From the NCBI GenBank assembly GCA_016181565.1, contig JACOZA010000081.1, positions 1 through 34,338 on the forward strand: a stretch of 34,338 nucleotides of DNA, in the 5' to 3' direction. Position numbers and translations under genes: made by a program. The stretch comes from Candidatus Sungiibacteriota bacterium. Lineage in GTDB: Bacteria > Patescibacteriota > Minisyncoccia > Sungbacterales > JACQCQ01. The notes under the pieces were generated by a model. The model saw only the letters and a program-made list of their open reading frames with translations. It was not told the origin of the DNA and did not search any database. Of the stretch, positions 2 to 24,208 are shown piece by piece (position 1 is the stretch's first letter; each line of letters opens with the position of its first letter).

Positions 2-3000
2 GACCGCATTGCTTTTTGGCTTGATTTCAAAAATGCCTACATCACCTACGAGCGTTCCTACATGGAGACGCTGTGGTGGATTATCGCCGAATGGTGGAAG
101 AAAAATTTGGTCTATCAGGATTTCAAGGTGCGGTCGTGGTGCACGAGGTGCGGCACCGGACTTTCATCGCATGAGGTGGCGCTCGGATATAAATCGGTGG
201 TTGATACGTCGGTCTATATTCGTTTCCGGTTGAATTCACAGGACCCGCGCTGGAAAAACGTGTCGATCCTTTCCTGGACCACCACGCCCTGGACCCTGCC
301 GGGGAATGTGGCGCTCGCGATTGGCCCCGAGATGCAGTACGTGCGTGTTCCCGATCCAGAAAAAAAAGGAAATTTTCTTGTGGTGGGGCAAGAGAATCTG
401 CCGCTCTTGATGAAACAGGGAGTATTGCCGAAAGATACGCGCGCCAGCACCTCTTTTCCGGGAAAAGAATTAATCGGGCTTTCCTATCATTCGCTTTTTG
501 ACGTTCCGACTCTCGCCAGTGCGGCGAGTTATCAGGTGTACGGAGCGGACTTTGTGAAAGGGAATGAGGGTTCGGGGATTGTGCATACGGCGGTCATGTA
601 TGGGGACGACGATTACCGATTGGGAAAGGCAGTTGGACTTCCCGCGATACATACGGTCACCGAGGCGGGAAAATTCATTCCGACGCTCGGCGGGGGGCTG
701 GGCGGGAAATACGTGAAATCAAAGGAAACCGAGTCGCTCCTCCTGGCGCACCTGCAGCGAACGGGAGCGATTATCCGCGAAGAGGCCTACGAACACGAGT
801 ATCCATTCTGCTGGAGATGCGACACGCCCATCCTTTACTACGCGCGTTCATCGTGGTGGGTGAGGGTGAACGCCGTGCGCCGGGACTTGCTGAAAAATAA
901 TGAAACGATTAATTGGGTGCCGAGCCACTTAAAGCGGGGGAGGTTTGGGGAGTGGCTGAAAGAAGAAAAAGACTGGGCCTTTTCTCGCGAACGCTACTGG
1001 GGAACCACCCTGCCGCTGTGGCGCTGCCAGGCGTGCGGCAACACGATCGCGATTGCGAGCGTGGCAGAGCTTGCCAGCCGCGCCTTAACGTCAGGCAACC
1101 GTTATATTCTGATGCGCCACGGCGAAGCCGAATCAAATGCTAAAGACTTCATAAGTTCCTGGCCCGAGAAAATTGTTTCGAACCTGACGGAACGCGGCCA
1201 AGAGCAAGTGCGGGCGGCAGCGGCGGATTTAAATTTAAAGAAAGAAAAAATTGACCTGATTGCAACATCCGATCTTCCGCGGACGGCCCAAACCGCCGAG
1301 ATCCTCTCCAGGGAGCTGGGCGTTTCGGATGTTCTCGCCGACCCGCGCCTGCGCGAAATTGATGCGGGAGAGATGAATGGCAAGCCAGCCAAGCTTTACC
1401 GCAGTTTATTTAAAACTCCGGGAGAAAAGCTGCATATGGGCGCGCCCGGTGGTGAATCACTCCTGAAAGTGCGCGAGCGCGTGGCGGGATTTTTCCTCGC
1501 CCAGGAACGTGAGTATCGCAACAAAACGATTCTGGTGGTCACCCATGCCGATGTGGCGTGGATGTTCGCCTCGGTTATGCGCGGGCTTTCCGACAAGGAG
1601 ATCGCCAGCGAATGGCAGCACGGCCGCGGGAAATTATTTGGGTTTGGTGAGCGCCGTCTGTATGAAGCGAAGAGCTTCCCCTTAAATGAGCGCGGCGAAG
1701 TTGACCTGCATCGGCCGTATGTGGATGAAATAAAGATTCGCTGTTCCTGCGGCGGAGTGAAAACTCGCGTCCCGGAGGTGGCGGATGTCTGGTTTGATTC
1801 GGGCGCCATGCCCTTTGCCCAGCTTCATTATCCCTTTGAAGGGAAAGCCGAAATCGATAAGAAGAAATTTTTCCCGGCCGATTTTATCACCGAAGCCGTT
1901 GACCAGACGCGCGGCTGGTTTTATACGCTCTTGGCAGTCTCAACGCTCTTGGGCAAAGGCGCGCCGTATAAAAATGTGATTTCCTTGGGCCATGTCTTGG
2001 ATCGGAACGGCCAAAAAATGTCAAAGTCCAAAGGCAACGTAGTGAGTCCTTGGGCCATGATCGAGAAATACGGCGTCGATGCCATCCGTTGGTATTTCTA
2101 TACTGTCAATGCGCCGGGAGACCCGAAGAAGTTTGATGAGCGGGATCTGGCTTCAAAACTCCGCGGGTTTATGGGGACCCTTTGGAACTCGTACCTTCTC
2201 CTGGGTACATACTCGGCGGGTTCTATTTCTCTCTCGCTCCGGTCGCGCGCGCTGATTGATCGCTGGGTGCTCTCGCGTCTTTCTGAAGTGATCGGACGCG
2301 TGACGGAGGCGCTCGAAGCGTACGATGTGACCTCGGCCGCGCGCGTCATCGAATCGTTTGTGATTGACGATTTCTCCAATTGGTACTTGCGCCGGTCTCG
2401 CCGCCGTTTTCAGCGCCCCGAAAAGAAACGCGAAAGAACCGAAGCGGCGCAAACAACCGCTTTTGTGCTCTTGACGCTCGCGGAATTGACCGCGCCCTTT
2501 GCGCCCTTTATCGCGGAGTCAATTTATCAGGGATTGAAAAAACATGTTCCGGCGCTGAAGGAAGAAAGTGTGCATCTCCGGCCTTGGCCAAAGCCGCAGC
2601 GCTCTCTCTATCAAGAGAAATTAACAAAAGATATGGAGCTTATACGGCGGATGGCGGCGGATGCCCTGCGTCAGCGCGCCGAGGCGGGAGTCAAAGTTCG
2701 TCAGCCGCTTGCAAAACTGACGATCGTGAAACAGGAGGGACTGAAAAGAGCAGCGGAGCTTCTGCGGCTGGCTCAAGAAGAAGTGAATGTAAAAGCCATC
2801 ACCTTCGCGCCCAAAGGACCGAAAGGAGTTATCACGATGCTTGATACGATTGTGACCGAGGCGCTGCGGCGCGAGGGTATGGCTCGTGAAATTGTGCGCA
2901 ATGTCCAGGAGTTGCGGCGTGATCTGGATCTTATGCCCCGCCAGCGCGTGACCGTCCAATGTCTCGGCTCAGAGAAGGCCCTGTCTATTCTCAAAGAATG

Positions 3001-3127
3001 GGAGAAATATATTCGGCGCGATGTGAACGCGAAGAGGCTCTGCCTCGGAGGACAAAAAAAGAAATTCCGCATCGAGCGTTCGGTGGAATTCGGACGCGAA
3101 AAACTGTGGATCGGTATTAATCTCTAG
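2..3127 (+). CDS. ileS: Isoleucyl-tRNA synthetase (type-2, Thermus-like architecture), 5' end outside window; contains a nested histidine-phosphatase-like domain
   Basis: The frame is open from nt 2 (DRIAFWLDFKNAYITYERSY precedes the first Met at 62). Motifs present: WCTRCGTGLSSHEV, DWAFSRERYWGTTLPLWRCQACG, DLHRPYVDEIKIRCSCGG, DVWFDSGAMPFAQLHYPFE and the KMSKS loop (GQKMSKSKGN). A long anticodon-binding/C-terminal region follows. Confidence 0.95.
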   Translation, partial: DRIAFWLDFKNAYITYERSYMETLWWIIAEWWKKNLVYQDFKVRSWCTRCGTGLSSHEVALGYKSVVDTSVYIRFRLNSQDPRWKNVSILSWTTTPWTLPGNVALAIGPEMQYVRVPDPEKKGNFLVVGQENLPLLMKQGVLPKDTRASTSFPGKELIGLSYHSLFDVPTLASAASYQVYGADFVKGNEGSGIVHTAVMYGDDDYRLGKAVGLPAIHTVTEAGKFIPTLGGGLGGKYVKSKETESLLLAHLQRTGAIIREEAYEHEYPFCWRCDTPILYYARSSWWVRVNAVRRDLLKNNETINWVPSHLKRGRFGEWLKEEKDWAFSRERYWGTTLPLWRCQACGNTIAIASVAELASRALTSGNRYILMRHGEAESNAKDFISSWPEKIVSNLTERGQEQVRAAAADLNLKKEKIDLIATSDLPRTAQTAEILSRELGVSDVLADPRLREIDAGEMNGKPAKLYRSLFKTPGEKLHMGAPGGESLLKVRERVAGFFLAQEREYRNKTILVVTHADVAWMFASVMRGLSDKEIASEWQHGRGKLFGFGERRLYEAKSFPLNERGEVDLHRPYVDEIKIRCSCGGVKTRVPEVADVWFDSGAMPFAQLHYPFEGKAEIDKKKFFPADFITEAVDQTRGWFYTLLAVSTLLGKGAPYKNVISLGHVLDRNGQKMSKSKGNVVSPWAMIEKYGVDAIRWYFYTVNAPGDPKKFDERDLASKLRGFMGTLWNSYLLLGTYSAGSISLSLRSRALIDRWVLSRLSEVIGRVTEALEAYDVTSAARVIESFVIDDFSNWYLRRSRRRFQRPEKKRERTEAAQTTAFVLLTLAELTAPFAPFIAESIYQGLKKHVPALKEESVHLRPWPKPQRSLYQEKLTKDMELIRRMAADALRQRAEAGVKVRQPLAKLTIVKQEGLKRAAELLRLAQEEVNVKAITFAPKGPKGVITMLDTIVTEALRREGMAREIVRNVQELRRDLDLMPRQRVTVQCLGSEKALSILKEWEKYIRRDVNAKRLCLGGQKKKFRIERSVEFGREKLWIGINL

Positions 3128-3144
3128 ATAAAAAGGCGGCTTAT

Positions 3145-3786
3145 ATGCACCAGTCTCGGGCGTTTGTGCTGGAACGAAGGGAGCGGCGCGAAGCCGACCA
3201 GTTGGTGACGCTTTACACCGAAGAGTTCGGCATTCTAAGAACAATTGCTTCTGGCGTCCGGAAAGCCGGGGCCAAGCTTCGCGGGCACCTCGAACCGCCG
3301 GCAAAAACCGAAGTCACCCTGGTGACCGGGAAACAGAACTACCGCTTGACCGGGGCGATACTGATTGACTCCTTCGCTCGGATTCGCAAGTTCCTCGAAC
3401 GGCGCCGTGCCGCTGAAGCTGCCGCCGCGGTCCTCTTAAGGATTTTCTTTCAAGAAAGAGATCCTCGGATTTGGGGAGCGCTGGAAGAATTTTTTGGAGC
3501 ACTGGATCGAGAATCGCCGCTTCCTGCTAGATTATGCCAGCAAGCGCTTTTTTGGTTTCTGATAAGAGCACTGGCAATTCTCGGTTATCACGCGTCACTT
3601 GATGGGATGTTTAGCAGAATGCCAAGACTCCGGGCGCTCTTTTTAAAGTACGAATCGGAAGATATCAGCCGGGCTCTGGATATTTCACTGCCGCCATCCG
3701 CCTTGCGAGTAATCGGGAGAGCCCTGCAAAAATCTTTTGAAGCCCATACGGGACAACACTTCGCCTTCCTGACCAAAGTTGATTAA
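3145..3786 (+). CDS. recO: DNA repair protein RecO (compact form)
   Basis: The N-terminus resembles the RecO OB-fold (RAFVLERRERREADQLVTLYTEEFGILRTIASGVRKAGAKLRGHLEP...TGKQNYRLTGA). Length is 213 aa and the start is 17 nt after the ileS stop. No C-terminal Zn finger is evident. Confidence 0.7.
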   Translation: MHQSRAFVLERRERREADQLVTLYTEEFGILRTIASGVRKAGAKLRGHLEPPAKTEVTLVTGKQNYRLTGAILIDSFARIRKFLERRRAAEAAAAVLLRIFFQERDPRIWGALEEFFGALDRESPLPARLCQQALFWFLIRALAILGYHASLDGMFSRMPRLRALFLKYESEDISRALDISLPPSALRVIGRALQKSFEAHTGQHFAFLTKVD

Positions 3787-3860
3787 TGAGAAAAAGCTAA
3801 CGGCTGTCTTCATCAGCCTGTCGGTTCTGCTCTCTGGGGCGGGCAGGGTATACTACAACT

Positions 3861-5750
3861 ATGAGCGATTTGGAGGATGTTAAGCGCAAGCTCTATACGC
3901 CCGGAGGCATTCCCGAACCGAAGCCGACGTTCTTGGGCAAGCCCGCGAGTCGAGCGGATGAAGTGCGGCGCGTCTGGGCGGATATAGCCCAAACGAAAGA
4001 AGAACCCCCGCGTATGAAAAAGGCAAGACGTTTTCGTTTTGGTTTGCTGGCGCTCGCACTTTTCATTTTAGGCATGGCGGCAGTCGCCGGTGTTTTTCTT
4101 ATCGGATTTCAACGCGATAACCTTTCTCTTCAAGTCCTGGCGAAAGATCGCGTTGAATCGGGAGAGCGAGTGGTGTATCAAATTTTTTACAAAAATACAG
4201 GCAGCGAAACCTTGAAAGACCTTGAACTCGCTTTCACCTACCCCGCGGGCAGCGTGCCTCTGCGCGAAGAGAAGCGTCAATCCGGGATTTACCGGACGCG
4301 CCTTTCGCTCTCGGATCTTGCTCCCGGAGTTGAGGCCAAGGTTGAACTCGAAGCGCGACTTTTTGGCAGAGAGAACGAGGTAGAGAAGGCTGAAGCGGCA
4401 TTTTTGTATCGTTTGGAATCAAGCTCCTCCCGTTTCAGCATAAAGGCATTCGCTGAAACTACGATTGTTCGCGTCCCGCTGGTGGTCGTGGTATCGGTAC
4501 CCGATGAGGTCATCTCGCGCCAGCAGATTGCGGTTGCGATTGATTACTCCTCGAACGCGCAGGCGCCTTTTGCGGATATGTTTTTCGGAATCCAGTACCC
4601 GGCCGGATTTGAGTTTACCGGCGCCGATCCGGCACCGGCGGCGGGAAATAACATTTGGTCGCTGGGCACGATTGGCCCCGGAGATTCGGGCAGGATTACG
4701 ATCCGCGGCATTGTCAGCGGTCCGCCCGGAGAATCTAAAATATTTTCCTCTCAACTTGGGCTATACAATCAAGAAACTCGGGAGTGGACGCCGTATCAGA
4801 CTGGCTCGAAAAGCGCCAAAATTTCAGTCCCGCTGCTCTCGATTGAGCAGCGCATCAACGAGGCCCGCGATCTTACCGTAAAACCCGGCGACGAGCTTAG
4901 GTTCCGTCTTCATTATAAGAATATCCTGGATACAGCGCTTAAGAATGTTTCGGTGGAGGTGCGGCTGCAGAGCCAAGCACTCGATCTCAAATCTTTGCGA
5001 ATTAGCGAAGGAGTGTTTGACGGCGAACGGAACGTGATTGTGTGGAATGCGGCGTCATTTTCAAAATTTGCTGCGCTTCCGGCCGGGAGCGAAGGTGATC
5101 TCAATTTTTCCGTACGCTTGAAGCCGGCGTCAAGCTTCGATGCTCTGAATACGAAGAATCTGACGATTGAATCCACGGCCAGGATAGCGTCAAGTGATAA
5201 GCCGGTAGGGTTGGCGGGAGCGGAGCTTGCCGCGGAAGACACGATCAGTGCCAAAATCTCTACGCGGCTCGTTCTTTCCTCGCGCCTGCTGTACCAAAGT
5301 CAATATCTTCCGAGCGGCGGCCCCCTGCCGCCGAAAGTCGGCGCAAAGACAAAATACGTCGTGGTTTGGCAGTTGACCAACACTCTCAACGATGTGGCGA
5401 ATGTGGAGATTCGCGCCGCGCTCCTGCCGGGAGTTTCATGGGAGAAACTGTACTCGCCATCGAGCCAGAGTGTTCTTTTCGATGAGAGTTCCGGAACAGT
5501 AACTTGGAGAGTTGGAAATATTATGGCCGGTGCGGGGATTTCACGCGCCTCGCCCATGCTGGCGTTCCAGATCGGTTTCACGCCGGGGATTAATCTGGTG
5601 GGGCAGTCGCCCGCGCTGGTTCGAAATATCGAGGTGAGCGCCATCGATACATTTACTAATGAGCCCCTGCTTATTCGGGGCGAGGAATTAACCACTGAAC
5701 TCCGAAGTGATCCGCTGACTTCCGAAAAAGACTGGAAAATAGTCGAATAA
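3861..5750 (+). CDS. Membrane-anchored hypothetical protein with repeated CARDB/DUF11-like beta-sandwich modules
   Basis: 629-aa ORF with a basic N-terminus and one TM helix (FGLLALALFILGMAAVAGVFLIGF). A similar signature recurs three times: VVYQIFYKNTGSETLKDLEL, LRFRLHYKNILDTALKNVSV and KYVVVWQLTNTLNDVANVEI. Confidence 0.7.
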   Translation: MSDLEDVKRKLYTPGGIPEPKPTFLGKPASRADEVRRVWADIAQTKEEPPRMKKARRFRFGLLALALFILGMAAVAGVFLIGFQRDNLSLQVLAKDRVESGERVVYQIFYKNTGSETLKDLELAFTYPAGSVPLREEKRQSGIYRTRLSLSDLAPGVEAKVELEARLFGRENEVEKAEAAFLYRLESSSSRFSIKAFAETTIVRVPLVVVVSVPDEVISRQQIAVAIDYSSNAQAPFADMFFGIQYPAGFEFTGADPAPAAGNNIWSLGTIGPGDSGRITIRGIVSGPPGESKIFSSQLGLYNQETREWTPYQTGSKSAKISVPLLSIEQRINEARDLTVKPGDELRFRLHYKNILDTALKNVSVEVRLQSQALDLKSLRISEGVFDGERNVIVWNAASFSKFAALPAGSEGDLNFSVRLKPASSFDALNTKNLTIESTARIASSDKPVGLAGAELAAEDTISAKISTRLVLSSRLLYQSQYLPSGGPLPPKVGAKTKYVVVWQLTNTLNDVANVEIRAALLPGVSWEKLYSPSSQSVLFDESSGTVTWRVGNIMAGAGISRASPMLAFQIGFTPGINLVGQSPALVRNIEVSAIDTFTNEPLLIRGEELTTELRSDPLTSEKDWKIVE

Positions 5751-5757
5751 TACCCAT

Positions 5758-7110
5758 ATGTCAACTCACGCGTCGAAGATTTCCATGGAAAAAATTGTTT
5801 CTCTTGCCAAACGGCGGGGATTTATTTTCCCCGGCTCTGAAATTTACGGGGGGCTCTCGGGAACTTGGGATTACGGCCCCCTGGGAGTTGAACTTAAGAA
5901 TAATATCAAGCGCGAATTTTGGCGGACTCTAGTTTATCAAAGGGATGATACAGTCGGCCTCGATGCCGCGGTCTTGATGAACCCCAGAGTCTGGGAAGCG
6001 TCCGGACATACTGAAGCGTTTGCGGATCCATTGATTGAATGCAAAGTTTGCCATGAGAGAATTCGGGCCGACAACCAAGAGGATAAAGAGAGTCATGAAA
6101 AAACGCACAGGACTAGGAAAGAAACGCCGGCTTGGACGGAGCCGCGCCAGTTCAACCTGCTGATGGCAGCGGAGCTAGGATCGGTGGAGGGGAAGAAATC
6201 TTCGGTGTATCTTCGCGGTGAAATTACGCAAGGGGTGCACGTGAATTTCAAAAATGTTCTCGATGCGGCATGGATGAAAATACCCTTCGGCATTGTCCAA
6301 ATCGGGAAAGCCTTCCGCAATGAAATTACTCCGGGGAATTTCACGTTCCGTTCGCGAGAGTTTGAACAAATGGAGCTGCAGTATTATGTGCGGCCGCACG
6401 AGGCAGAATCAATGAGGTGGTTTCTTTACTGGAAAGAGGAGCGGATGGCATGGTACAAGAGGCTCGGCATTCGGGGAGCCAATCTACGGTTTCGTGAGCA
6501 CGCTCCAGACGAGCGGGCGCATTACGCGCGCGCGGCTTGGGATATCGAGTACAATTCGCCCTTTGGGGGATGGAAAGAATGTGAGGGGATACACCACCGC
6601 GGCGAGTGGGATTTGTCGCGCCACAAAGAATTCAGTGGAGTAGACCTTTCTTATTTTGACGAAGAGGCTAAAGAGCGTTTTATCCCTTGGGTGATTGAAA
6701 CGTCCGGCGGCGTTGATCGGGCCCTCCTCTTTTTCCTGATAGATGCCTACCGCGAAGAACCCGACAAAGACGGAGTTCGTACGCTGCTTAAAATTCATCC
6801 CCAGCTGGCGCCCTATAAAGTGGCTGTTTTCCCGCTACTCGCCAATAAACCCGACTTAGTTGACCGAGCGCGAAAAATCTATACGATATTGAAGTCATCG
6901 TTGGTCGCCGCTTGGGACGATATCGGCAATATCGGCAAGCGCTACCGCCGGCAGGATGAAATCGGCACGCCCTTTTGTATCACCGTGGATTTTGAGACGC
7001 TGGAAGACGGAACGGTAACCGTCCGCGATCGCGATACCATGCGGCAGGAGCGGGTGAATGAAAAAGAGTTAATAGAGCATCTGTCGGATAAAATCAAAAC
7101 TGGTTCTTAG
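5758..7110 (+). CDS. glyQS: Glycyl-tRNA synthetase, class II dimeric type
   Basis: IVSLAKRRGFIFPGSEIYGGLSGTWDYGPLG N-terminus; FRNEITPGNFTFRSREFEQMELQYYV; GIHHRGEWDLSRH; C-terminal anticodon-binding block (VAVFPL...RYRRQDEIGTPFCITVD). An alternative start is ATG 5785 (MEKIV...). Confidence 0.93.
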   Translation: MSTHASKISMEKIVSLAKRRGFIFPGSEIYGGLSGTWDYGPLGVELKNNIKREFWRTLVYQRDDTVGLDAAVLMNPRVWEASGHTEAFADPLIECKVCHERIRADNQEDKESHEKTHRTRKETPAWTEPRQFNLLMAAELGSVEGKKSSVYLRGEITQGVHVNFKNVLDAAWMKIPFGIVQIGKAFRNEITPGNFTFRSREFEQMELQYYVRPHEAESMRWFLYWKEERMAWYKRLGIRGANLRFREHAPDERAHYARAAWDIEYNSPFGGWKECEGIHHRGEWDLSRHKEFSGVDLSYFDEEAKERFIPWVIETSGGVDRALLFFLIDAYREEPDKDGVRTLLKIHPQLAPYKVAVFPLLANKPDLVDRARKIYTILKSSLVAAWDDIGNIGKRYRRQDEIGTPFCITVDFETLEDGTVTVRDRDTMRQERVNEKELIEHLSDKIKTGS

Positions 7111-7219
7111 TGAATAGTTGATAGTTCCGGTTATCAGTTGGTAGTTGAGGTTTCGGTTTAAACTGGTAACCAAAACTCGCAGCCCAAGACTAGAACTATC
7201 AACTAACCAACTAAAAATT
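7108..7219. repeat. Intergenic array of 16 heptanucleotide units arranged as an imperfect palindrome
   Basis: Units read TAGTGAA TAGTTGA TAGTTCC GGTTATC AGTTGGT AGTTGAG ... AGAACTA TCAACTA ACCAACT AAAAATT. A perfect 13-bp inverted repeat links TAGTTGATAGTTC (7115-7127) and GAACTATCAACTA (7193-7205). An inner pair links GGTTATCAGTT (7129-7139) and AACTGGTAACC (7161-7171). Confidence 0.8.
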
Positions 7220-7225
7220 GCGATT

Positions 7226-8491
7226 ATGTTTCAAAAAATAATCTTGCCCAACAAACTGCGCCTTATCACCGCCCCCATGAAAGGCACCAATACCGTGACG
7301 ATTCTTGTCATGTGCGCCACGGGCTCCGATCACGAAACCCCAGCGGAAGGCGGCATCTCGCATTTCTTGGAGCATCTGTTTTTTAAAGGCACGGAGCGTC
7401 GCCGCACACCGCAGGTGATTAAACACGAATTGGATTCGATGGGGAGCATCTCCAATGCTTTTACCAGCCACGAATACACGGGATATTTCATTAAGGCGGG
7501 GTACCTTCATTTTGACCGGGCGCTCGATCTGCTGGCTGATATTTACACCAATTCACTCCTGGATCCCAAAGAGATCAATCGCGAGCGGCAGGTAATAGTT
7601 GAAGAGATGCACAAATATCTGGACACGCCCGAGCGCTACATCTGGGATATTTACGAGCGGCTTCTTTACGGCGATCAGCCGGCCGGCCGCGATGTTATCG
7701 GTACGGAAGCGAACATTCGGGGGTTCACTCCCGCACATTTTCGCAAATATTTCAATTCTCAATACACGTCACAAAATACCGTTGTGATTGTAGCCGGGAA
7801 TTTCGATACCTCTCGTACGGTTGGGAAAATCAAGCGTCTCTTCGGTTCGGTTCGTTCATCAAAGCCGCGCGCCAAGGGCTTGTTTAAAGAAAAGCAGGCC
7901 AGGCCCGCGCTGAAACTGCATTTTAAAGAGACTGATCAGTCGCACCTTGTAGCCGGCTTTCGCGGATTTGACGCGCACCACCAGCATCGCTACGCGGCCG
8001 AGATGTTAGGAGTGGTGCTCGGCGGGAGCTGGAGTGCTCGTATGTGGGATGTGGTGCGCGACCGCTTGGGGCTGGCGTACGCCGTGCACACCAGTCACGA
8101 AAATTACTCTAATCGCGGCATGCTGGTTACGTATGCAGGCGTGGCGCATGCTAATGTCGAGAAGGCGCTTCGCGCCATTATGGGGGAGTATCGAAAAGTC
8201 ACCGAGGCTCCAGTGTCACGAAAGGAGCTTGAGCGTGCCAAGGAGCACGTCAAGGGCACCTCCCTGATTGCTCTTGAATCCTCCAATGCGGTGGCGAATT
8301 TCGTCGGTATCGAGGAAGTCGTTACCGGCAAACCCCTGACGATTGATGAAGTTTTTGCTAAGATTGAGGGTGTCACGCCCGCCGATATTCAGGCGGTCGC
8401 AAGAAAACTTTTCCGGCCGGAATTTCTTAACCTTGCGATTATAGGGCCTTTTAAGGAAGAAACTGGATTTTCCAAGCTTCTTAAGCTCTAA
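7226..8491 (+). CDS. M16 family (insulinase/pitrilysin-like) zinc peptidase
   Basis: HxxEH zinc motif (GISHFLEHLFFKGT) with a two-domain M16 layout. I start at ATG 7226 (MFQKIILPNKLRL). The 27 upstream codons of the track ORF lie in the repeat spacer and look non-coding. Confidence 0.88.
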   Translation: MFQKIILPNKLRLITAPMKGTNTVTILVMCATGSDHETPAEGGISHFLEHLFFKGTERRRTPQVIKHELDSMGSISNAFTSHEYTGYFIKAGYLHFDRALDLLADIYTNSLLDPKEINRERQVIVEEMHKYLDTPERYIWDIYERLLYGDQPAGRDVIGTEANIRGFTPAHFRKYFNSQYTSQNTVVIVAGNFDTSRTVGKIKRLFGSVRSSKPRAKGLFKEKQARPALKLHFKETDQSHLVAGFRGFDAHHQHRYAAEMLGVVLGGSWSARMWDVVRDRLGLAYAVHTSHENYSNRGMLVTYAGVAHANVEKALRAIMGEYRKVTEAPVSRKELERAKEHVKGTSLIALESSNAVANFVGIEEVVTGKPLTIDEVFAKIEGVTPADIQAVARKLFRPEFLNLAIIGPFKEETGFSKLLKL

Positions 8492-8525
8492 TAGACTCTA
8501 ATGGAAACCAAGAGAAAAAAGACAT

Positions 8526-9560
8526 ATGGCGAGCGAACGGCAACTGACTGAAATATCAACCTGGACGATTATTCGGGTGTTTGCGGCAGCCCTGGGGATT
8601 TTTTTGGCGTACCACTTGCGCGAAATTCTCGCGGTGCTTTTGTTTGCCATTGTCCTGGCATCAGCCATGGAGCCAACGATCCGCTGGTTTCAGGAGCGTA
8701 AAATACCAAGAATTTTGTCAACGCTTATCATCTTTCTTTCGGCCTTCGGCGTTATTTTTTTGGCGGTTTATTTGCTGATTCCGCTGCTGGCGGCCGACCT
8801 CGAGGGATTTAACTTGAGCTACTCCGTCTTTGAGCGTCAAATTTTAGGCGAACTTGGCTCCATCGGGGGCGTGCCGTTTATCGATTTTATTCGTGAGAAT
8901 GCTCGCGGGATTCTTCTGGAGCCCTCCCAGTATATTTCGAGCATTTCCGGCGGTGTGTTTGCTTTCACCTCGACATTCTTCGGCGGGGTGTTTTCATTTG
9001 TAATTCTGGTGGTAGTTTCTTTTTATCTGGCGGCGCAGGAAAAAGGGATCGAGGGATTCATCCGCTTAGTCACTCCCTTAAAATACGAAAGTTATGCAGT
9101 CGACCTCTGGTTGCGTTCTCAGCGCAAGATGGGGCAGTGGCTTCGGGCACAGTTGCTTTTGGGGGCGCTGATTGGCGCCGTCATTTACGTGGGCCTCACG
9201 CTTTTAGATATAAAATACGCGTTGGTATTCGCGTTTTTGGCCGGGATTTTAGAGCTGGTGCCGGTGGTGGGGCCGATTCTTTCTGCGGCACCGCCCACCT
9301 TGGTTGCGTTTCTTCAGAGCCCGTTTCTGGCGCTCATGGTAATAATCCTTTTTGTGGTGGTGCAGCAGCTGGAGTCGCATGTGGTGGTGCCGGTGATAAT
9401 GCGCCAAACTATCGGTATTCCGCCGATTGTGGTTATCATTGCTCTCTTGGTGGGGGCAAAACTCGCGGGGGTGCTGGGGCTTTTGCTCGCGGTGCCGATT
9501 GCGGCGGTTATAGTCGAGCTGGTAAACGATTTTGATCGCAGGAAGCGCGCGGCAGCATGA
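8526..9560 (+). CDS. AI-2E family transporter (PerM/UPF0118)
   Basis: Polytopic membrane protein with the family-typical C-terminal half (LLGALIGAVIYVGLTLLDIKYALVFAFLAGILELVPVVGPILSAAP...VVQQLESHVVVPVIM). Confidence 0.85.
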   Translation: MASERQLTEISTWTIIRVFAAALGIFLAYHLREILAVLLFAIVLASAMEPTIRWFQERKIPRILSTLIIFLSAFGVIFLAVYLLIPLLAADLEGFNLSYSVFERQILGELGSIGGVPFIDFIRENARGILLEPSQYISSISGGVFAFTSTFFGGVFSFVILVVVSFYLAAQEKGIEGFIRLVTPLKYESYAVDLWLRSQRKMGQWLRAQLLLGALIGAVIYVGLTLLDIKYALVFAFLAGILELVPVVGPILSAAPPTLVAFLQSPFLALMVIILFVVVQQLESHVVVPVIMRQTIGIPPIVVIIALLVGAKLAGVLGLLLAVPIAAVIVELVNDFDRRKRAAA

Positions 9561-9946
9561 AAACGCATGAGCTGAAAGCGGCGGCAGCCAATTACGCGCA
9601 ATTAATTGCGCTTTTTCTTTTGGGAGTTCTCTTTATATTGGCGGACTGGCTCTCGTCGTTTCCGCCCGGGTCTCTCTATCCCCAGTGGGATACGGCCGTG
9701 CACATGATTGCCGGAGCGCTCCTTATGATTACATTTACGCCCTATACCTCCAGCACTCGGAGCATTCTCTTAGCGGTCTTTAGTATTGCCGTCGCTTTCG
9801 AGATCGCTGAATTTTTCACGACACCCCTCTCGGATTACGGCAGTACTCGCGCCTACGTTATTGACACTATCCTGGATATCTCGGCGGCAGTCGTCGGCGC
9901 CTGGGCCGTCCACAAACTGTTTTTTAAGAGGTCGCCTCATGACTAG
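9557..9946 (+). CDS. Small integral membrane protein, about 4 TM helices, function unknown (weak VanZ-like flavour)
   Basis: ATGA start/stop overlap with the upstream transporter and hydrophobic helices throughout. The 3' end overlaps the metG start by 8 nt. Confidence 0.55.
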   Translation: MKTHELKAAAANYAQLIALFLLGVLFILADWLSSFPPGSLYPQWDTAVHMIAGALLMITFTPYTSSTRSILLAVFSIAVAFEIAEFFTTPLSDYGSTRAYVIDTILDISAAVVGAWAVHKLFFKRSPHD

Positions 9947-11387
9947 GAAGCCATATTTCATCACCACGCCGATTTACTACGTCAACGATGTTCCGCACAT
10001 CGGGCATGCGTATACGACGGTGGCGGCGGATGTCTACAGTCGCTTTCTCCGCGCACGCGGAGACGCGGCGGTCTTATTAGTTGGCACGGATGAGCACGGA
10101 GCCAAAATTGCCGAAGCTGCCGCCAAAGCCGGCAAAAAGCCGAAAGTATATGTTGACGAACTTGCCCAAGTGTTCCGCACGACGTGGGAAAAATTGAATA
10201 TTCAGTATGATCGTTTTATCCGCACGACCGATACTGATCATGAGGCGACCGTAAGGACATTTCTGCAAAAAATTTACGACAGCGGGTTTATCACCAAAGG
10301 GATTTATGAAGGGCTGTACTGCGTGGGGCACGAAAAGTTCATGTCGGCCGAGGAGCTGGTGGACGGCAAGTGCCCCGAGCATAATCGCGCTCCCCAGCCG
10401 TATAAAGAAGAAAATTATTTCTTCCTTCTGTCGAAGTTCAGAAAACAATTGATTGAGCAGATTGAAAATGAAGAAATCGAAATTCGGCCGCTTGAGCGCA
10501 AAAATGAAATTTTAGGAAAGATTCACCAAGGATTGCAGGATATTTCTATCTCGCGTGCGAGTGTACCCTGGGGCATACCCATGCCGTTTGATCCAACGCA
10601 TACGATTTATGTCTGGATTGACGCGTTAATTAACTACTATACGTATGGCAAGTTGAAAGGCACGTGGCCGGCCGATTTGCATCTCGTCGGAAAGGATATC
10701 CTTTGGTTCCATGCTGTCATCTGGCCAGCGCTGCTTATGGCCGCGGGCGAAGCGCCGCCTAAAAAAATTTTTGCGCACGGGTTTTTTACGATTGGAGGCT
10801 CGAAAATGTCGAAGACTCTCGGGAATGTGATAACTCCCCAGCAGCTAATCGATAAATTCGGCGTGGACGCCGCGCGGTATCTTTTATTGTCTGCTTTTCC
10901 TTTTGGAGCCGACGGTGATTTTGATTGGGCGCGGCTCATCGAGAAATATAACGCCGATTTGGCCAACGGCATCGGCAATTTGCATGCGCGCCTTACCACA
11001 TTGGCCGTCTCTCATGTCGGAATTGTATTAGGGTGGGATGATGAGTTAAGCGAAATACGTCGATTTCGGGGCAGATACGAAGCAGCGTTAGAGCAGCTGG
11101 ATTTTTATTTGGCAATCCAAGTCATTCAAGAGCTCATTTCGAAAGGAGATAAGCTTATGAATGAAAAAAGGCCCTGGGCTGTTGAAGGTGAGGCGCAAAA
11201 GAAAGAACTTCACGGCTTGCTGCAAATTCTTGCCGCGGTCGCATATTTCATGCATCCCTTCATGCCAGAAACCTCCGTAAAGATTTGGGGCTCGTTAGGA
11301 ATAGCAGAAATAAATGAATTCAAAAAGATGGGGAAGGCTGTTCTTAGGGTTCATAAAATAGAGAATCTCTTTCCTCGTATTCAATGA
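9939..11387 (+). CDS. metG: Methionyl-tRNA synthetase (short form)
   Basis: YFITTPIYYVNDVPHIGHAYTT (HIGH motif) and GGSKMSKTLGN (KMSKS). Start chosen at ATG 9939 (MTRKPYF). The 51 upstream codons of the track ORF overlap the previous gene and have no MetRS character. Confidence 0.93.
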   Translation: MTRKPYFITTPIYYVNDVPHIGHAYTTVAADVYSRFLRARGDAAVLLVGTDEHGAKIAEAAAKAGKKPKVYVDELAQVFRTTWEKLNIQYDRFIRTTDTDHEATVRTFLQKIYDSGFITKGIYEGLYCVGHEKFMSAEELVDGKCPEHNRAPQPYKEENYFFLLSKFRKQLIEQIENEEIEIRPLERKNEILGKIHQGLQDISISRASVPWGIPMPFDPTHTIYVWIDALINYYTYGKLKGTWPADLHLVGKDILWFHAVIWPALLMAAGEAPPKKIFAHGFFTIGGSKMSKTLGNVITPQQLIDKFGVDAARYLLLSAFPFGADGDFDWARLIEKYNADLANGIGNLHARLTTLAVSHVGIVLGWDDELSEIRRFRGRYEAALEQLDFYLAIQVIQELISKGDKLMNEKRPWAVEGEAQKKELHGLLQILAAVAYFMHPFMPETSVKIWGSLGIAEINEFKKMGKAVLRVHKIENLFPRIQ

Positions 11388-12226
11388 GTGCGCCGCGCCT
11401 AATTGACACTCACGCACACGTTCAGTTTCCGGTTTTTGCCGAGGATCGTGCCGAGGTAATTTCGCGTGCGCTGGATGTGGGGATTTGGATGGTGAATATT
11501 GGAACGCAGGAGTCCAGCTCGCGTGATGCGATAAAGTTATCCGAGAAATATTCCGCAGGAGTATACGCCTCGGTCGGATTTCATCCGGGGCATGTTGCGC
11601 CGCAATTTCATGACGCGTGGGAGAAAGAAAGCGTGGCCGAAGAAGTTTTTGATATCGCCAAACTCCGCGAGTTAGCGCAACATCCGAAAGTCGTGGGGAT
11701 TGGTGAGTGCGGACTGGATTACTACCGGTTAGGTGATAGGGAGCAGGTGATAGGGAGTGGCAACGAGATCAAGCTGGAACAAAAGGAAATCTTTCGAGCG
11801 CAGATTGAGATCGCCAAAGATTTTAAAAAACCCTTGATCATCCATTGCCGCGACGCATTTTCTGACCTCATCGAAATCCTGTCACCTGTTACCCATTCCC
11901 TGCTACCTAGTCCCGGCGTAATTCATTTCTTCAGCGGAACTCTCGAGGACGCGAAAGCGTTAATGAATCTTGGTTTTTATCTCGGTTTCGGCGGAGTGGT
12001 CACATTTGCCAAAGCATACGAAAAAATCGTTCGAGAAATTCCTCTGGAGCGAATCGTTTTGGAAACGGACGCCCCGTATGTGGCTCCCGTACCCTACCGC
12101 GGCAAGCGCAATGAGCCGCTCTATATTGAGGCAACCGCGGCCAAGATCGCTGAATGGAAAGAGGCCGATATAGCCGAGGTCAAGCGACAGACTACCCAGA
12201 ATGCCAAGGACCTCTTTGGTATTTGA
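11384..12226 (+). CDS. tatD: TatD-family metal-dependent hydrolase/DNase
   Basis: LIDTHAHVQF, GECGLDYY, PLIIHCRDA, IHFFSG and LETDAPY motifs. ATGA overlap with the metG stop. metG-tatD is a common conserved pairing. Confidence 0.9.
   Translation: MSAPRLIDTHAHVQFPVFAEDRAEVISRALDVGIWMVNIGTQESSSRDAIKLSEKYSAGVYASVGFHPGHVAPQFHDAWEKESVAEEVFDIAKLRELAQHPKVVGIGECGLDYYRLGDREQVIGSGNEIKLEQKEIFRAQIEIAKDFKKPLIIHCRDAFSDLIEILSPVTHSLLPSPGVIHFFSGTLEDAKALMNLGFYLGFGGVVTFAKAYEKIVREIPLERIVLETDAPYVAPVPYRGKRNEPLYIEATAAKIAEWKEADIAEVKRQTTQNAKDLFGI
11731..11758. repeat. In-frame 14-bp x2 (4 x 7) tandem repeat inside tatD
   Basis: AGGTGATAGGGAGC AGGTGATAGGGAGT. It encodes part of LGDREQVIGSG, an extra loop right after the conserved GLDYY motif. 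Confidence 0.85.
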
Positions 12227-12247
12227 AACTTTTTCGTCAGCTATTTC

Positions 12248-12277
12248 TTGACGTTAACTTAAACTTAACGATAGAGT
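12248..12277 (+). promoter_or_regulatory. Candidate sigma70-type promoter upstream of the RT gene
   Basis: TTGACG (12248-12253), 18-nt spacer, TAGAGT (12272-12277). Hexamer match only. Confidence 0.35.
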
Positions 12278-12400
12278 GTAGGCGCAGGTTAGCAGACGCA
12301 GCGTCCTTTCCAAGGAATGCCTCCGCAGATTGCTGCGGGGGACTGTTGATGCTGGCGGCTAGTCGGTCTGGAGGAAGATAAAGTTCAATGGTTTGAAAGC

Positions 12401-13504
12401 GTGTTGCAGCAGCGGCTCTCCGATCCTTACTGCTATCGAGCGAAGCAAATCCCAAAGCGGCTTGGAGGATTGAGGACGATTGATGTCCCATGCCCTCGTC
12501 TGAAAAAACTCCAGCGTCGGATCCATGATTTTCTCCTTCGGCGCCACTACCGTCCCTCAAGAATCTGTCATTCTTTCGTTGGCAAGTTCTATGATGTTGC
12601 GCGCCCCGCGAGAAAGCGCTGGATTCCCGGTCGTTCACTTTTCACAAATGCGTGGGTGCATCTTGGTGTCCCGCCTGGAGTCTCGCCGCGGAGCAAATCA
12701 CGGAGGATTCACTGGCGCATCCCGCGTTCGCTCTTCAGTGTTGACCTTAAAGACGCCTATCCTTCCATCGGCGTTGATCATGTCTTCCGTATCTACCAGG
12801 AGCTGACAGGAGATCCCTGGACGGCGCAGATCCTTTCAACCCTATCTACTTGGAACGGCAGTTTGCCGCAGGGAGCCCCGACCTCGCCGCTCCTTCTCAA
12901 CTTCGCCTGCCGTGAACTGGACGGGGCGCTGGCACATGAGTTTACGCGCGGACCCTATCGCCTGACGCGCTATGTCGATGATTTCGTGCTGACGTCTACA
13001 GATCCCGAGATCAGCGAAGCGACGCGAGAGCGGTTCGTCGCTATCATTGAGCAGCACGGTTTCAAGATAAATCAGGCGAAGACATGTTACTGGCGTGATA
13101 CAGATCGCGCGCTCCGCGTAACGGGCATCAATCTCTTTCCGCAGGAGCGACACATTGGACTTCCCAACGTCGTCCAGAGGCAATTCCGCGCCGCGCTCTA
13201 CTACGCGCTAAAGTCGCTTGAGTCTATTCACGCCTATGCTTTGCAACGCGGAGTGCTCGACGAAACAACGGCCATGTCTCTCCGCGGCGCCGAGAAACAG
13301 GCCTGGGGGCTTATCTACGGCGTCATTGGTTTTACGTATCAGGTCTACGGCGCAAAGATCCCGCGGCCAATCTACGCATGGATTCCCGAGTTGACCGCGA
13401 GGACCGGCGTCACGTCCGATACGTTGGTCGCAAAGATTAAGAAATATCCTCCCATTGCCGCGATCCAGCAGATCGGCGAGGAGATCATCGGAAGTTCCCC
13501 ATAG
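12401..13504 (+). CDS. Reverse transcriptase, retron-type (RT domain only)
   Basis: RT blocks occur in order: IPKRLGGLRTIDVP, SLFTNAWVH (NAxxH), SVDLKDAYPSI, LPQGAPTSPLLLNF, RYVDDFVLT (YxDD), GFKINQAKT, ALRVTGINLF (VTG). The frame contains no ATG before the motifs. The first in-frame start is GTG 12401 (TTG 12404 follows), so the start is uncertain. Confidence 0.85.
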   Translation: MLQQRLSDPYCYRAKQIPKRLGGLRTIDVPCPRLKKLQRRIHDFLLRRHYRPSRICHSFVGKFYDVARPARKRWIPGRSLFTNAWVHLGVPPGVSPRSKSRRIHWRIPRSLFSVDLKDAYPSIGVDHVFRIYQELTGDPWTAQILSTLSTWNGSLPQGAPTSPLLLNFACRELDGALAHEFTRGPYRLTRYVDDFVLTSTDPEISEATRERFVAIIEQHGFKINQAKTCYWRDTDRALRVTGINLFPQERHIGLPNVVQRQFRAALYYALKSLESIHAYALQRGVLDETTAMSLRGAEKQAWGLIYGVIGFTYQVYGAKIPRPIYAWIPELTARTGVTSDTLVAKIKKYPPIAAIQQIGEEIIGSSP

Positions 13505-13545
13505 CGCCCCCGTTCGGTTTATCCGAATCGGGGCGTTATCTTTTG
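13505..13545 (+). terminator. Intrinsic terminator after the RT gene
   Basis: The CGCCCCCGTTCGG / CCGAATCGGGGCG stem has 11 WC pairs, 1 GU and 1 mismatch, with loop TTTAT. It is followed by TTATCTTTTG and starts 1 nt after the RT stop codon. Confidence 0.7.
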
Positions 13546-13546
13546 C

Positions 13547-13575
13547 TTGAAGAGTGGGATTTTGGCTTGTATAGT
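13547..13575 (+). promoter_or_regulatory. Candidate sigma70-type promoter for the leuS leader
   Basis: TTGAAG (13547-13552), 17-nt spacer, TATAGT (13570-13575). The -10 ends 8 nt before ATG 13584. Confidence 0.5.
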
Positions 13576-13580
13576 GAGTT

Positions 13581-13727
13581 GGTATGCCCGGTAGTGAAAA
13601 CCCGATTGGCATCTTTCCGGATGCCAGTGGGGCCTCACCTTGGCTTCTTTGTTAGTCTGTTTGTGTCATAGTTTATGATAAGGACAATTTATATACTTAT
13701 GTATCCAGTTTCTACTACCGGGTATGC
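13581..13727. repeat. ~134-bp segment bounded by 9-nt terminal inverted repeats and a 7-nt direct duplication (MITE-like footprint or structured leader)
   Basis: GGTATGC occurs at 13581-13587 and again at 13721-13727. CCCGGTAGT (13587-13595) is the exact reverse complement of ACTACCGGG (13714-13722). An internal hairpin pairs TGGCATC and GATGCCA (13607-13626). Confidence 0.6.
13584..13655 (+). CDS. Possible 23-codon upstream ORF in the leuS leader (MPGSENPIGIFPDASGASPWLLC)
   Basis: Its ATG sits in the same GGTATGC context as the leuS ATG, 8 nt after a -10 box. It ends with CTT CTT TGT TAG. There is no homology evidence. Confidence 0.2.
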   Translation: MPGSENPIGIFPDASGASPWLLC

Positions 13728-16669: not shown

Positions 16670-17313
16670 ATGTCATTCAGTTGAATGAAAAAACACACCA
16701 CGGCGTACTTTTTGAAGCCGTACGCGTGGTGAAAGCTGGCGGCGTTATTTGTTATCCCACGGATACGATCTACGGCCTCGGCGGGAATGCGCTTGAGGCA
16801 GGAGTCGCGCGGCGTATCAGGCGCATCAAAAAGCGCCCCGAAGAAAAAGGCATGATTATTTTGGTAAGAGATGTGACCATGGCGCGAATGTATGCTTATA
16901 TTGATCTCTGGACCGAAACACTCCTCGGAGATCTCTGGCCCGGGCCGATCACTGTGGTACTCCAGAAAAAAGACACGATGCCGGATATTGTCTCCGGCGG
17001 CAAGGAAACCATCGCGCTTCGCATGCCCCATTTCTTATTTGTGAACGAGCTTGCCAAGCAAATTGACTTTCCCCTGATTGCCACCTCCGCTAACGTCTCG
17101 GGAGACTCTAACCAGCCGCGCACACTCGCGTCATTTTTAGCGGCGATGCGGTCCGCCCGGTACAAACCCGATTTGGCGATTGATGCGGGAGAACTGCCCA
17201 ATCATGAGCCCTCGACAGTCCTCGATCTCACCAATCGCAAGAACCCGGTGATTCTGCGCCACGGCGTACTGTCAAAGTCAGACCTTGACCAGATGCTCGC
17301 CAAACATTTATGA
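16666..17313 (+). CDS. tsaC: L-threonylcarbamoyladenylate synthase (YrdC/Sua5-domain, TsaC type)
   Basis: VICYPTDTIYGLGGNA, IATSANVSG and PSTVLDL motifs. Length 215 aa with an ATGA overlap with the leuS stop. Confidence 0.85.
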   Translation: MNVIQLNEKTHHGVLFEAVRVVKAGGVICYPTDTIYGLGGNALEAGVARRIRRIKKRPEEKGMIILVRDVTMARMYAYIDLWTETLLGDLWPGPITVVLQKKDTMPDIVSGGKETIALRMPHFLFVNELAKQIDFPLIATSANVSGDSNQPRTLASFLAAMRSARYKPDLAIDAGELPNHEPSTVLDLTNRKNPVILRHGVLSKSDLDQMLAKHL

Positions 17314-17382
17314 GGGAGAGTATTTCAAAAAGATTCCAGATGCTCGCCAAACATTTATGAGGGAGAGTATTTCAAAAAGATT
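17289..17382. repeat. Exact 47-bp tandem duplication spanning the tsaC stop / glyA start junction
   Basis: CCAGATGCTCGCCAAACATTTATGAGGGAGAGTATTTCAAAAAGATT occurs at 17289-17335 and identically at 17336-17382. Confidence 0.95.
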
Positions 17383-24145: not shown

Positions 24146-24208
24146 TTCCTTGCTGCTTATCTCTCGTCACTGATCTATTGTCTCTTGTTTCTTGTCTCTT
24201 GTCGCTAG
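24146..24208. repeat. Array of 9 heptamers (TCTCTTG type) filling the parB/rel convergent spacer
   Basis: TTCCTTG CTGCTTA TCTCTCG TCACTGA TCTATTG TCTCTTG TTTCTTG TCTCTTG TCGCTAG. TCTCTTG is the reverse complement of the CAAGAGA unit in leuS. The last unit contains the rel stop codon. Confidence 0.85.

Follow-up and report, generated by a model that had tools for sequence, protein, structure and literature searches.

Aminoacyl-tRNA synthetases are among the best-studied enzymes, and CP1, the catalytic module known to be nested in them, defined the concept of translational editing. In isoleucyl-tRNA synthetase (IleRS) of the Thermus type, the zinc knuckle is the zinc-binding motif of the CP3 subdomain, a motif that the Candida and S. 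aureus enzymes lack (PMC7191050). A single sentence in Kantor et al. (2013, mBio, PMC3812714) describes IleRS of SR1 (Absconditabacteria) as interrupted by "phosphoglycerate mutase" (His_Phos_1) domains. Here we analyze contig JACOZA010000081.1 from a Candidatus Sungiibacteriota bacterium, the whole 34,338-bp stretch of which we refer to as the window; it belongs to a 753-kb genome assembly of 108 contigs that is 91% complete. As judged from its translation, the ileS gene at the start of the window encodes a single chain that combines a type-2 (Thermus/eukaryote-like) IleRS with an intact branch-1 histidine phosphatase set into the CP3 zinc hairpin. The SR1 enzyme contains a Nudix domain and two such domains, whereas the IleRS described here contains a single one. 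Type-2 enzymes of known structure (Thermus thermophilus IleRS, 1ILE; Priestia megaterium IleRS2, 8C8U/8C8V) share with it the domain order, both Cys4 zinc sites, the KMSKS motif, CP1 and a DUF5915-type C-terminus, but have a CP3 hairpin tip of about 6 residues where this protein accommodates a 204-residue enzyme. Our literature search, which covered IleRS and other synthetases paired with a histidine phosphatase or phosphoglycerate mutase domain, and the Candidate Phyla Radiation, found only Kantor et al. To that report we add a locus that exists in two states with gene-for-gene synteny, and matching trees for host and guest with an approximately unbiased (AU) test.

The ileS reading frame is open and continuous over 1041 residues, with no stop or frameshift, and its 5′ part is cut by the contig end. 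About 133 N-terminal IleRS residues, including the HIGH motif, are lost beyond that end; the region is present in full-length relatives, and no fragment corresponding to it was found on any other contig of the genome. Even without the N-terminus, the frame scores 666.1 bits against TIGR00392 (cutoff 621.4) and aligns to 1ILE with E=2.9e-190. The TIGR00392 match is split in two, with residues 2-368 covering model positions 134-506 and nucleotides 1703-2740 covering positions 510-854, in agreement with a preliminary description of this DNA, which had reported a continuous frame with IleRS motifs resuming after an insert. No second ileS exceeds the TIGR00392 cutoff in the 753-kb genome, and as the only copy this gene must be functional. 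The features of the gene, in window coordinates and with residue numbers counted along the frame, are as follows.

2..3127, + strand: ileS, type-2 (Thermus/eukaryote-like) IleRS with nested phosphatase (TIGR00392, 1ILE, Foldseek).
2..1087 (residues 1-362), + strand: IleRS part 1, comprising the rest of the first Rossmann half, the CP core, the CP1 editing domain, CP2 and the first half of CP3; equivalent to 1ILE 135-481.
1025..1036, + strand: C342-x2-C345, first half of the CP3 zinc knuckle; equivalent to T. thermophilus C461/C464, at least 90% conserved in 106 homologues.
1088..1699 (residues 363-566), + strand: nested histidine phosphatase with its linkers (Pfam, 1ILE alignment, AlphaFold2, free-standing homologues).
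1106-1600 (residues 369-533), + strand: Pfam His_Phos_1 core of the insert (PF00300).
1115..1120, + strand: R372-H373 of the RHG motif, H373 being the predicted phospho-acceptor; invariant in 106/106.
1280..1282, + strand: R427 of the SD..R motif, predicted phosphate-binding arginine; invariant in 106/106.
1355..1357, + strand: E452 of the RE...G motif, predicted general acid/base; E in 102/106, D in 4/106.
1544..1546, + strand: H515 of the VVTH motif, predicted second active-site histidine; invariant in 106/106.
Residues 534-566, + strand: C-terminal return segment of the insert.
1700..3127 (residues 567-1041), + strand: IleRS part 2, comprising HRPYVD, the second Rossmann half, the anticodon-binding domain and the DUF5915 C-terminal domain; residues 567-897 equivalent to 1ILE 488-821 (Pfam Anticodon_1, DUF5915).
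1742..1750, + strand: C581-x-C583, second half of the CP3 zinc knuckle; equivalent to T. thermophilus C502/C504, at least 90% conserved in 106 homologues.
2015-2029 (residues 672-676), + strand: KMSKS, within the second Rossmann half.

Alignment to 1ILE places query residues 362 and 567 opposite T. thermophilus residues 481 and 488, with about 204 residues taking the place of the hairpin tip. The preliminary description had situated the insert between the CxxC and CxC halves of a Thermus-type zinc knuckle, and the alignment supports this and identifies the knuckle as that of CP3. Its borders of 1100-1702 were in the right location, the alignment giving the slightly wider 1088-1699; its "residues 347-547" denote the correct interval but were counted from an internal ATG at nucleotide 62. 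The His_Phos_1 profile matches residues 369-533 at 109.4 bits (cutoff 21.7, E=2.4e-31, model positions 2-165 of 194), and the interval 1100-1702 alone, which translates as RYILMRHGEAESN...NERGEV, matches it with E=8.5e-33. All phosphatase motifs quoted in the preliminary description are found in the translation, and with the catalytic set R372/H373/R427/E452/H515 present, its claim of a complete branch-1 histidine phosphatase holds. The insert is the sole His_Phos_1 domain in the genome, and its family motif is RHGEAxSN..S(S/C)WPEK..LTxKG.

Conservation was assessed in an alignment of 106 full-length IleRS homologues that carry the insert. In addition to the catalytic residues listed above, T396, G399, S423 and G456 of the insert are invariant, as is the first zinc site of the IleRS (C47/C50/C270/C273). 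The insert ranges from 194 to 209 residues in length. Its mean pairwise identity of 43% places it on a par with CP1 (49%) and the anticodon-binding domain (48%), above the C-terminal domain (37%) and below the Rossmann core (61-65%). Since the catalytic residues are invariant or nearly so at about 43% overall identity, selection appears to have acted on chemistry, beyond binding alone, and the insert shows the conservation pattern expected of an enzyme under purifying selection. By the standard mechanism of the superfamily, a phosphomonoester would be hydrolysed through phospho-His373, with R372, R427 and H515 holding the phosphate and E452 serving as the acid/base.

We predicted the structure of the whole frame with AlphaFold2 from the 106-sequence alignment. 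The model has a mean predicted local distance difference test score (pLDDT) of 93.2 and a predicted template modelling score (pTM) of 0.84, with pLDDT values of 81-98 and alternating strands and helices across residues 363-566. The linkers are very short, running from helix 354-360 into strand 367-372 and from strand 551-555 to HRPY at residue 570. Thus modelled, the phosphatase is rigidly tethered on CP3. The fold search was performed with the whole protein only; Foldseek returned 8C8V (TM 0.67) and 1ILE (TMt 0.73), and its matches were solely IleRS, ValRS and LeuRS, which makes it uninformative on the insert.

The preliminary description had called the arrangement an unfamiliar one. The arrangement is real, but it is not unique to this genome, as the SR1 precedent and a survey of relatives indicate. 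Eighteen of the 23 genomes sampled from the same class have the nested form, and three more have a phosphatase gene upstream of ileS; the nested arrangement is the usual one for this class of Patescibacteria. Within the order, His_Phos_1 is found in 50 of 61 genomes, mostly in frames of 1150-1300 residues, and across a sample of the phylum, close matches to the insert occur in 108 of 401 genomes. The CP3 tip is the insertion site in most hosts. Two IleRS of family f24 (L090 and L091; 1479-1504 residues) contain two tandem His_Phos domains at this tip, the first orthologous to the single nested copies and the second divergent, branching outside the IleRS-associated clade. In two other genomes (L101 and L102), the His_Phos domain occupies a second site, the loop just ahead of the anticodon-binding domain; the 1451-residue IleRS of L102 (3138-7490, − strand) has its His_Phos at residues 920-1068 and a GNAT domain at residues 666-764 in a third loop.

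Nested histidine phosphatases also occur in two further synthetases. ValRS from several families has a His_Phos of canonical type (RHGETxWN..D.PL), a different subfamily, nested in the homologous Cys knuckle. These ValRS loci include L012 (670-3387, − strand) and L018 (1-2898, + strand); the L018 protein has a further insert of about 120 residues before the His_Phos, and the ValRS of L099 (1316 residues) has another of about 240 residues. In the class II AlaRS of family f60 (L094 at 3633-5969, L095, L117 and L118; 775-800 residues), a His_Phos_1 domain (E=1.5e-42), likewise of the canonical type, is nested in the catalytic domain, where it separates the FxxYE strand from the DTG(I/M)G(F/M)ER motif. 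Judging from the sequences, ValRS and class II AlaRS acquired their phosphatases independently and from different His_Phos subfamilies. We also examined large frames among the top 150 phylum matches for hosts other than synthetases. Six were found, all of them end-to-end fusions, and five of the six are of the true cofactor-dependent phosphoglycerate mutase (dPGM) type: four join a 2-hydroxyacid dehydrogenase to a dPGM-type domain and one has a Nudix-like N-terminus before such a domain, while the sixth is a His_Phos with a membrane segment. The dehydrogenase fusions (L112-L115) and the Nudix-like one (L110), with the dPGM-type motif RHxESEWN...HGNSLRAL, come from other Patescibacteria families and represent a separate fusion, probably a metabolic one.

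The closest free-standing relatives of the insert are proteins of 180-196 residues that are 38-44% identical to it and have the same catalytic residues; those of 189-196 residues encoded between argS and ileS match it over their full length at 41-43% identity. They share its unusual S(S/C)WPEK segment, and the insert is longer by only about 10 linker residues. In three independent contig sets, their genes lie in the order rplT-rpmI-infC / smpB / argS, His_Phos, ileS, recO, DUF11, class II aminoacyl-tRNA synthetase. The ileS genes of these argS-His_Phos-ileS loci encode insert-free proteins of 929-947 residues, and the insertion site of insert-free IleRS reads IGSIKELE/ELAGRKPK/DLHRP. Two of the loci (L124 and L125) have gaps of 6-15 nucleotides between argS and the phosphatase gene and of 137-141 nucleotides between the phosphatase gene and ileS. 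The nested form is represented in a Candidatus Sungbacteria metagenome-assembled genome by the order argS, ileS with His_Phos inside, recO, DUF11, class II synthetase, M16 peptidase, AI-2E transporter, MetRS; its argS-ileS interval lacks a phosphatase gene. From ileS onwards, the gene order in the window is exactly that of this genome. The downstream order of recO, DUF11 and class II synthetase is common to L124, L125 and L126, and the window contains the same three markers, identified by Pfam.

3145-3786, + strand: recO.
3861-5750, + strand: DUF11 surface protein.
5758-7110, + strand: class II aminoacyl-tRNA synthetase (tRNA-synt_2b).

Other arrangements were also found. A second lineage, family f18, has the phosphatase gene between argS and ileS with 1-3 unrelated genes interposed. 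Two members of genus g158 (L073 and L074) have both a nested copy and a free-standing copy 0.3-1 kb upstream of ileS; in these, it is the upstream copy that clusters with the nested copy of the related L109, whereas their own nested copy does not. Taken together, the alignments describe a dedicated IleRS-associated phosphatase family whose pairing with its host has persisted through rearrangement.

We calculated an IleRS tree from an alignment of 52 rows and 988 columns from which the insert had been removed. Lineages with an adjacent phosphatase gene and lineages without a phosphatase are scattered among the nested ones: L124 and L125 are sister (support 99) to eight nested forms, and two insert-free IleRS (genomes G005 and G009) group with the clade of the window (99). 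Confining all non-nested IleRS to a single side of one branch lowers the log-likelihood by 593 units (AU test, p=2.3e-10), and forcing the adjacent-gene IleRS together gives p=1.7e-6; these margins are very large despite the groups having been chosen post hoc. In the phosphatase tree, the IleRS-associated copies, irrespective of nesting site and including the adjacent genes, all fall into a single clade with a support of 98 in the Shimodaira-Hasegawa-like approximate likelihood ratio test (SH-aLRT), from which the ValRS-embedded domains are excluded. The free-standing phosphatases of L124 and L125 fall in a clade (support 84) with the nested copies of their sister IleRS clade, and the six-member clade of the window is recovered in both trees. 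The trees agree where they are resolved and indicate that IleRS and one phosphatase family have co-diverged, with several switches in the state of the phosphatase between nested, adjacent and lost. Recombination between ileS alleles may have contributed to the pattern.

A chimeric assembly, a frameshifted gene pair or a decaying pseudogene would each mimic a nested domain, and the contig end does fall inside ileS. We searched with residues 330-600, which span both junctions, and obtained 2721 proteins at E<=1e-3. The best 120 of these all combine IleRS families with PF00300, cover both junctions and come from NCBI, JGI, ENA and Logan assemblies under labels that include Sungbacteria, Paceibacterota, Uhrbacteria, Nealsonbacteria, Colwellbacteria and Giovannonibacteria, among others; for some of the relatives that share the junctions, the whole IleRS is 76-77% identical. 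Since the same junctions recur in many independent assemblies, a chimera is excluded. With the continuous frame, the flat GC content over both insert junctions and the standing of this gene as the only ileS of a 91%-complete genome, an artefact of any of these kinds is exceedingly improbable. An intein or mobile element was considered and rejected: the junctions (...ALTSG/NRY... and ...RGE/VDLHRP...) have no HN+C/S/T and no repeats beyond chance-level 10-mers at the insert borders, and the GC content shows no shift.

The insert could also be the cell's phosphoglycerate mutase or phosphoserine phosphatase, filling a metabolic gap from within a synthetase. Its nearest PDB sequence match is the PspA of H. 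thermophilus (4IJ5, E=9e-12), followed by TIGAR and PhoE, and it is the only His_Phos_1 domain available to the genome. However, the genome encodes a bona fide cofactor-independent phosphoglycerate mutase (iPGM; TIGR01307, 576 bits against a cutoff of 331), and the insert is therefore not a missing mutase. Phosphoglycerate kinase is present, and enolase was not found in the 91%-complete genome. SerC was not found either, the only class-V aminotransferase (Aminotran_5) being NifS/IscS-like, and thus a PspA-like phosphoserine phosphatase would have no visible substrate supply; the one 2-hydroxyacid dehydrogenase of the genome most resembles glyoxylate reductase. Comparison with NCBIfam models led us to reject dPGM (18-71 bits against cutoffs of 81-409, with PDB chains of dPGM and bisphosphoglycerate mutase aligning only to about residues 2-96 of the insert, its N-terminal part), PspA (NF045917, 61 against 350), the alpha-ribazole phosphatase CobC (TIGR03162, 78 against 162.9) and the phosphohistidine phosphatase SixA (TIGR00249, 35 against 74.5). 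With scores so far under the cutoffs, the insert is placed in no characterized subfamily, and a gap-filling role is very unlikely.

What the phosphatase does for the cell was left open in the preliminary description, rightly in our judgement. We regard it as about evenly balanced whether the domain works as a catalyst through the usual phospho-histidine mechanism and has a role linked to aminoacylation. Its job would then be tied to charging and not to general metabolism, and it would most plausibly clear a phosphorylated molecule that hinders charging; candidates include an inhibitor, a by-product derived from a nucleotide and a tRNA with a blocked 3′ end. Because some relatives manage without it, the phosphatase would be an accessory that stands outside the aminoacylation chemistry. 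A specific form of this proposal, for which enzymes that pyrophosphorylate the CCA ends of tRNA with specificity for tRNA (toxSAS; bioRxiv 10.1101/2021.04.30.441581 and 10.1101/2024.07.05.602228) offer an analogy, is that the IleRS-associated phosphatase may act as a built-in tRNA "unblocker" that removes phosphate or pyrophosphate from the tRNA 3′ end. We consider this unlikely. No small toxSAS that could be an internal source of blocked tRNA was found in the genome, where the only RelA_SpoT-family gene is a long RelA/SpoT homologue at 24205-25932 (− strand) with HD, synthetase, TGS and ACT domains. It is also possible that the domain acts as a regulatory or structural module, binding a phosphorylated ligand or buttressing CP3 and so tuning IleRS, with catalysis secondary or lost. 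The short rigid linkers and high pTM of the model suggest a fixed orientation on CP3, as such a module would have, but five catalytic residues that are (near-)invariant in 106 sequences only about 43% identical, and their retention in the free-standing orthologues, make this quite unlikely.

The main rival to a role linked to aminoacylation is that the insert is an ordinary housekeeping phosphatase, small and unconnected with translation. Nested in or placed beside an essential, steadily expressed and insertion-tolerant host, it would gain reliable expression where promoters and regulators are few. Synthetases would simply be the large proteins at hand that best tolerate insertions. We take this possibility seriously, while leaning away from it. 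Several observations weigh on its side and against a link to aminoacylation. Synthetases tolerate insertions, and other small enzymes sit in IleRS loops, namely GNAT in L102 and Nudix in the SR1 enzyme (Kantor et al. 2013, PMC3812714). The function is dispensable, since 11 of the 61 genomes of the order, some of them 99% complete, are without any His_Phos_1; in G005 and G009, both 99% complete, the IleRS is insert-free and query residues 363 and 557 abut. No known substrate ties the phosphatase to translation. The rplT-infC-smpB-argS-ileS-recO block is syntenic as a whole, and the adjacency of phosphatase and ileS could be an inherited gene order and not a selected one. Other free-standing His_Phos genes of the order lie near ileS or valS in none of 20 cases; at 23-32% identity to the embedded domains they belong to a different subfamily, and we rejected them as partners. 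The window has four synthetase genes within 17 kb (2-16669: ileS, the class II tRNA-synt_2b gene, metS at 9786-11387 and leuS at 13724-16669), and with such clustering, nearness to a synthetase gene is by itself weak evidence. The trees come from quick searches and have SH-aLRT values as their sole support, and the groups for the AU test were defined once the tree had been inspected. Dispensability in relatives, synteny of the block and the lack of a known substrate thus keep this explanation alive. Set against it, ileS and this phosphatase family have remained together over several rearrangements, and phosphatases of at least two subfamilies have entered synthetases of three families, one of them a class II enzyme of unrelated structure, while no nested copy was seen in other large proteins (large frames examined among the top 150 phylum matches). 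Furthermore, the domain is the sole His_Phos_1 of its genome, yet the gaps tested, phosphoglycerate mutase and phosphoserine phosphatase, do not need it.

Other features of the window were noted. The LeuRS (13724-16669, + strand) has 981 residues, about 100 above the typical bacterial enzyme; short K/N-rich loops at about 15.7-16.2 kb account for the extra length only partly, and no added Pfam domain was found in it. A reverse transcriptase of 367 residues (12401-13504, + strand; RVT_1, E=2e-19) lies between tatD and leuS, and no template/variable repeat pair of a diversity-generating retroelement was found within 9-20 kb. In the relative L121, RVT_1 and bAvd genes, the signature of a diversity-generating retroelement, are located directly downstream of ileS. 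At 17289-17382, a perfect 47-nucleotide tandem duplication extends over the Sua5/YrdC stop codon and the ribosome-binding site and start of the serine hydroxymethyltransferase gene; it could be real or else an assembly artefact. An Rfam scan of the window gave no matches.

Across a large bacterial radiation, a second, unrelated hydrolase is thus attached to IleRS, as a neighboring gene or as a nested domain. If the link is functional, it would point to an unrecognized phosphate-removal step in tRNA charging, or to a defence of the charging machinery, in host-dependent organisms with minimal genomes. Were the "unblocker" proposal true, synthetases would possess a second quality-control site beside CP1, one that IleRS, ValRS and AlaRS had each acquired independently. 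If the phosphatase has no link to translation, the locus would show reduced genomes packing enzymes into permissive loops of essential genes. For protein engineers, the CP3 site is a natural IleRS insertion site that has been tolerated many times.

Among characterized histidine phosphatases, the insert resembles PspA (4IJ5), PhoE of B. stearothermophilus (1EBB/1H2E) and TIGAR (3E9C/3DCY) in its size of about 200 residues, its RHG..R..E..H set and its lack of dPGM-specific extensions. It differs from them in having S(S/C)WPEK where an R.QG..D.PL segment is usual and in being nested, whereas they are free-standing enzymes with known small-molecule substrates. Fusion to a nucleic-acid enzyme has a parallel in the bifunctional RNase H/acid phosphatase of the Rv2228c type (NF005567), whose model matches the insert with E=4e-19; that protein, however, is an end-to-end fusion with an unrelated partner, and the insert scores 69 bits against a cutoff of 326. 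The NCBIfam family ileS_w_GNAT (NF040702) provides a curated precedent for an IleRS that hosts an extra enzyme domain, but the guest is a different enzyme and the present frame, at 202 bits against a cutoff of 1999, is not a member. If the phosphatase is indeed coupled to aminoacylation, the nearest analogue in how it would work may be the CP1 editing domain, which is hydrolytic, sits within the Rossmann fold of the same enzyme and strips a substrate of translation of a group that should not be there. CP1, however, occurs universally, has mischarged tRNA as its target and is indispensable for fidelity, whereas the phosphatase is lineage-specific and dispensable.

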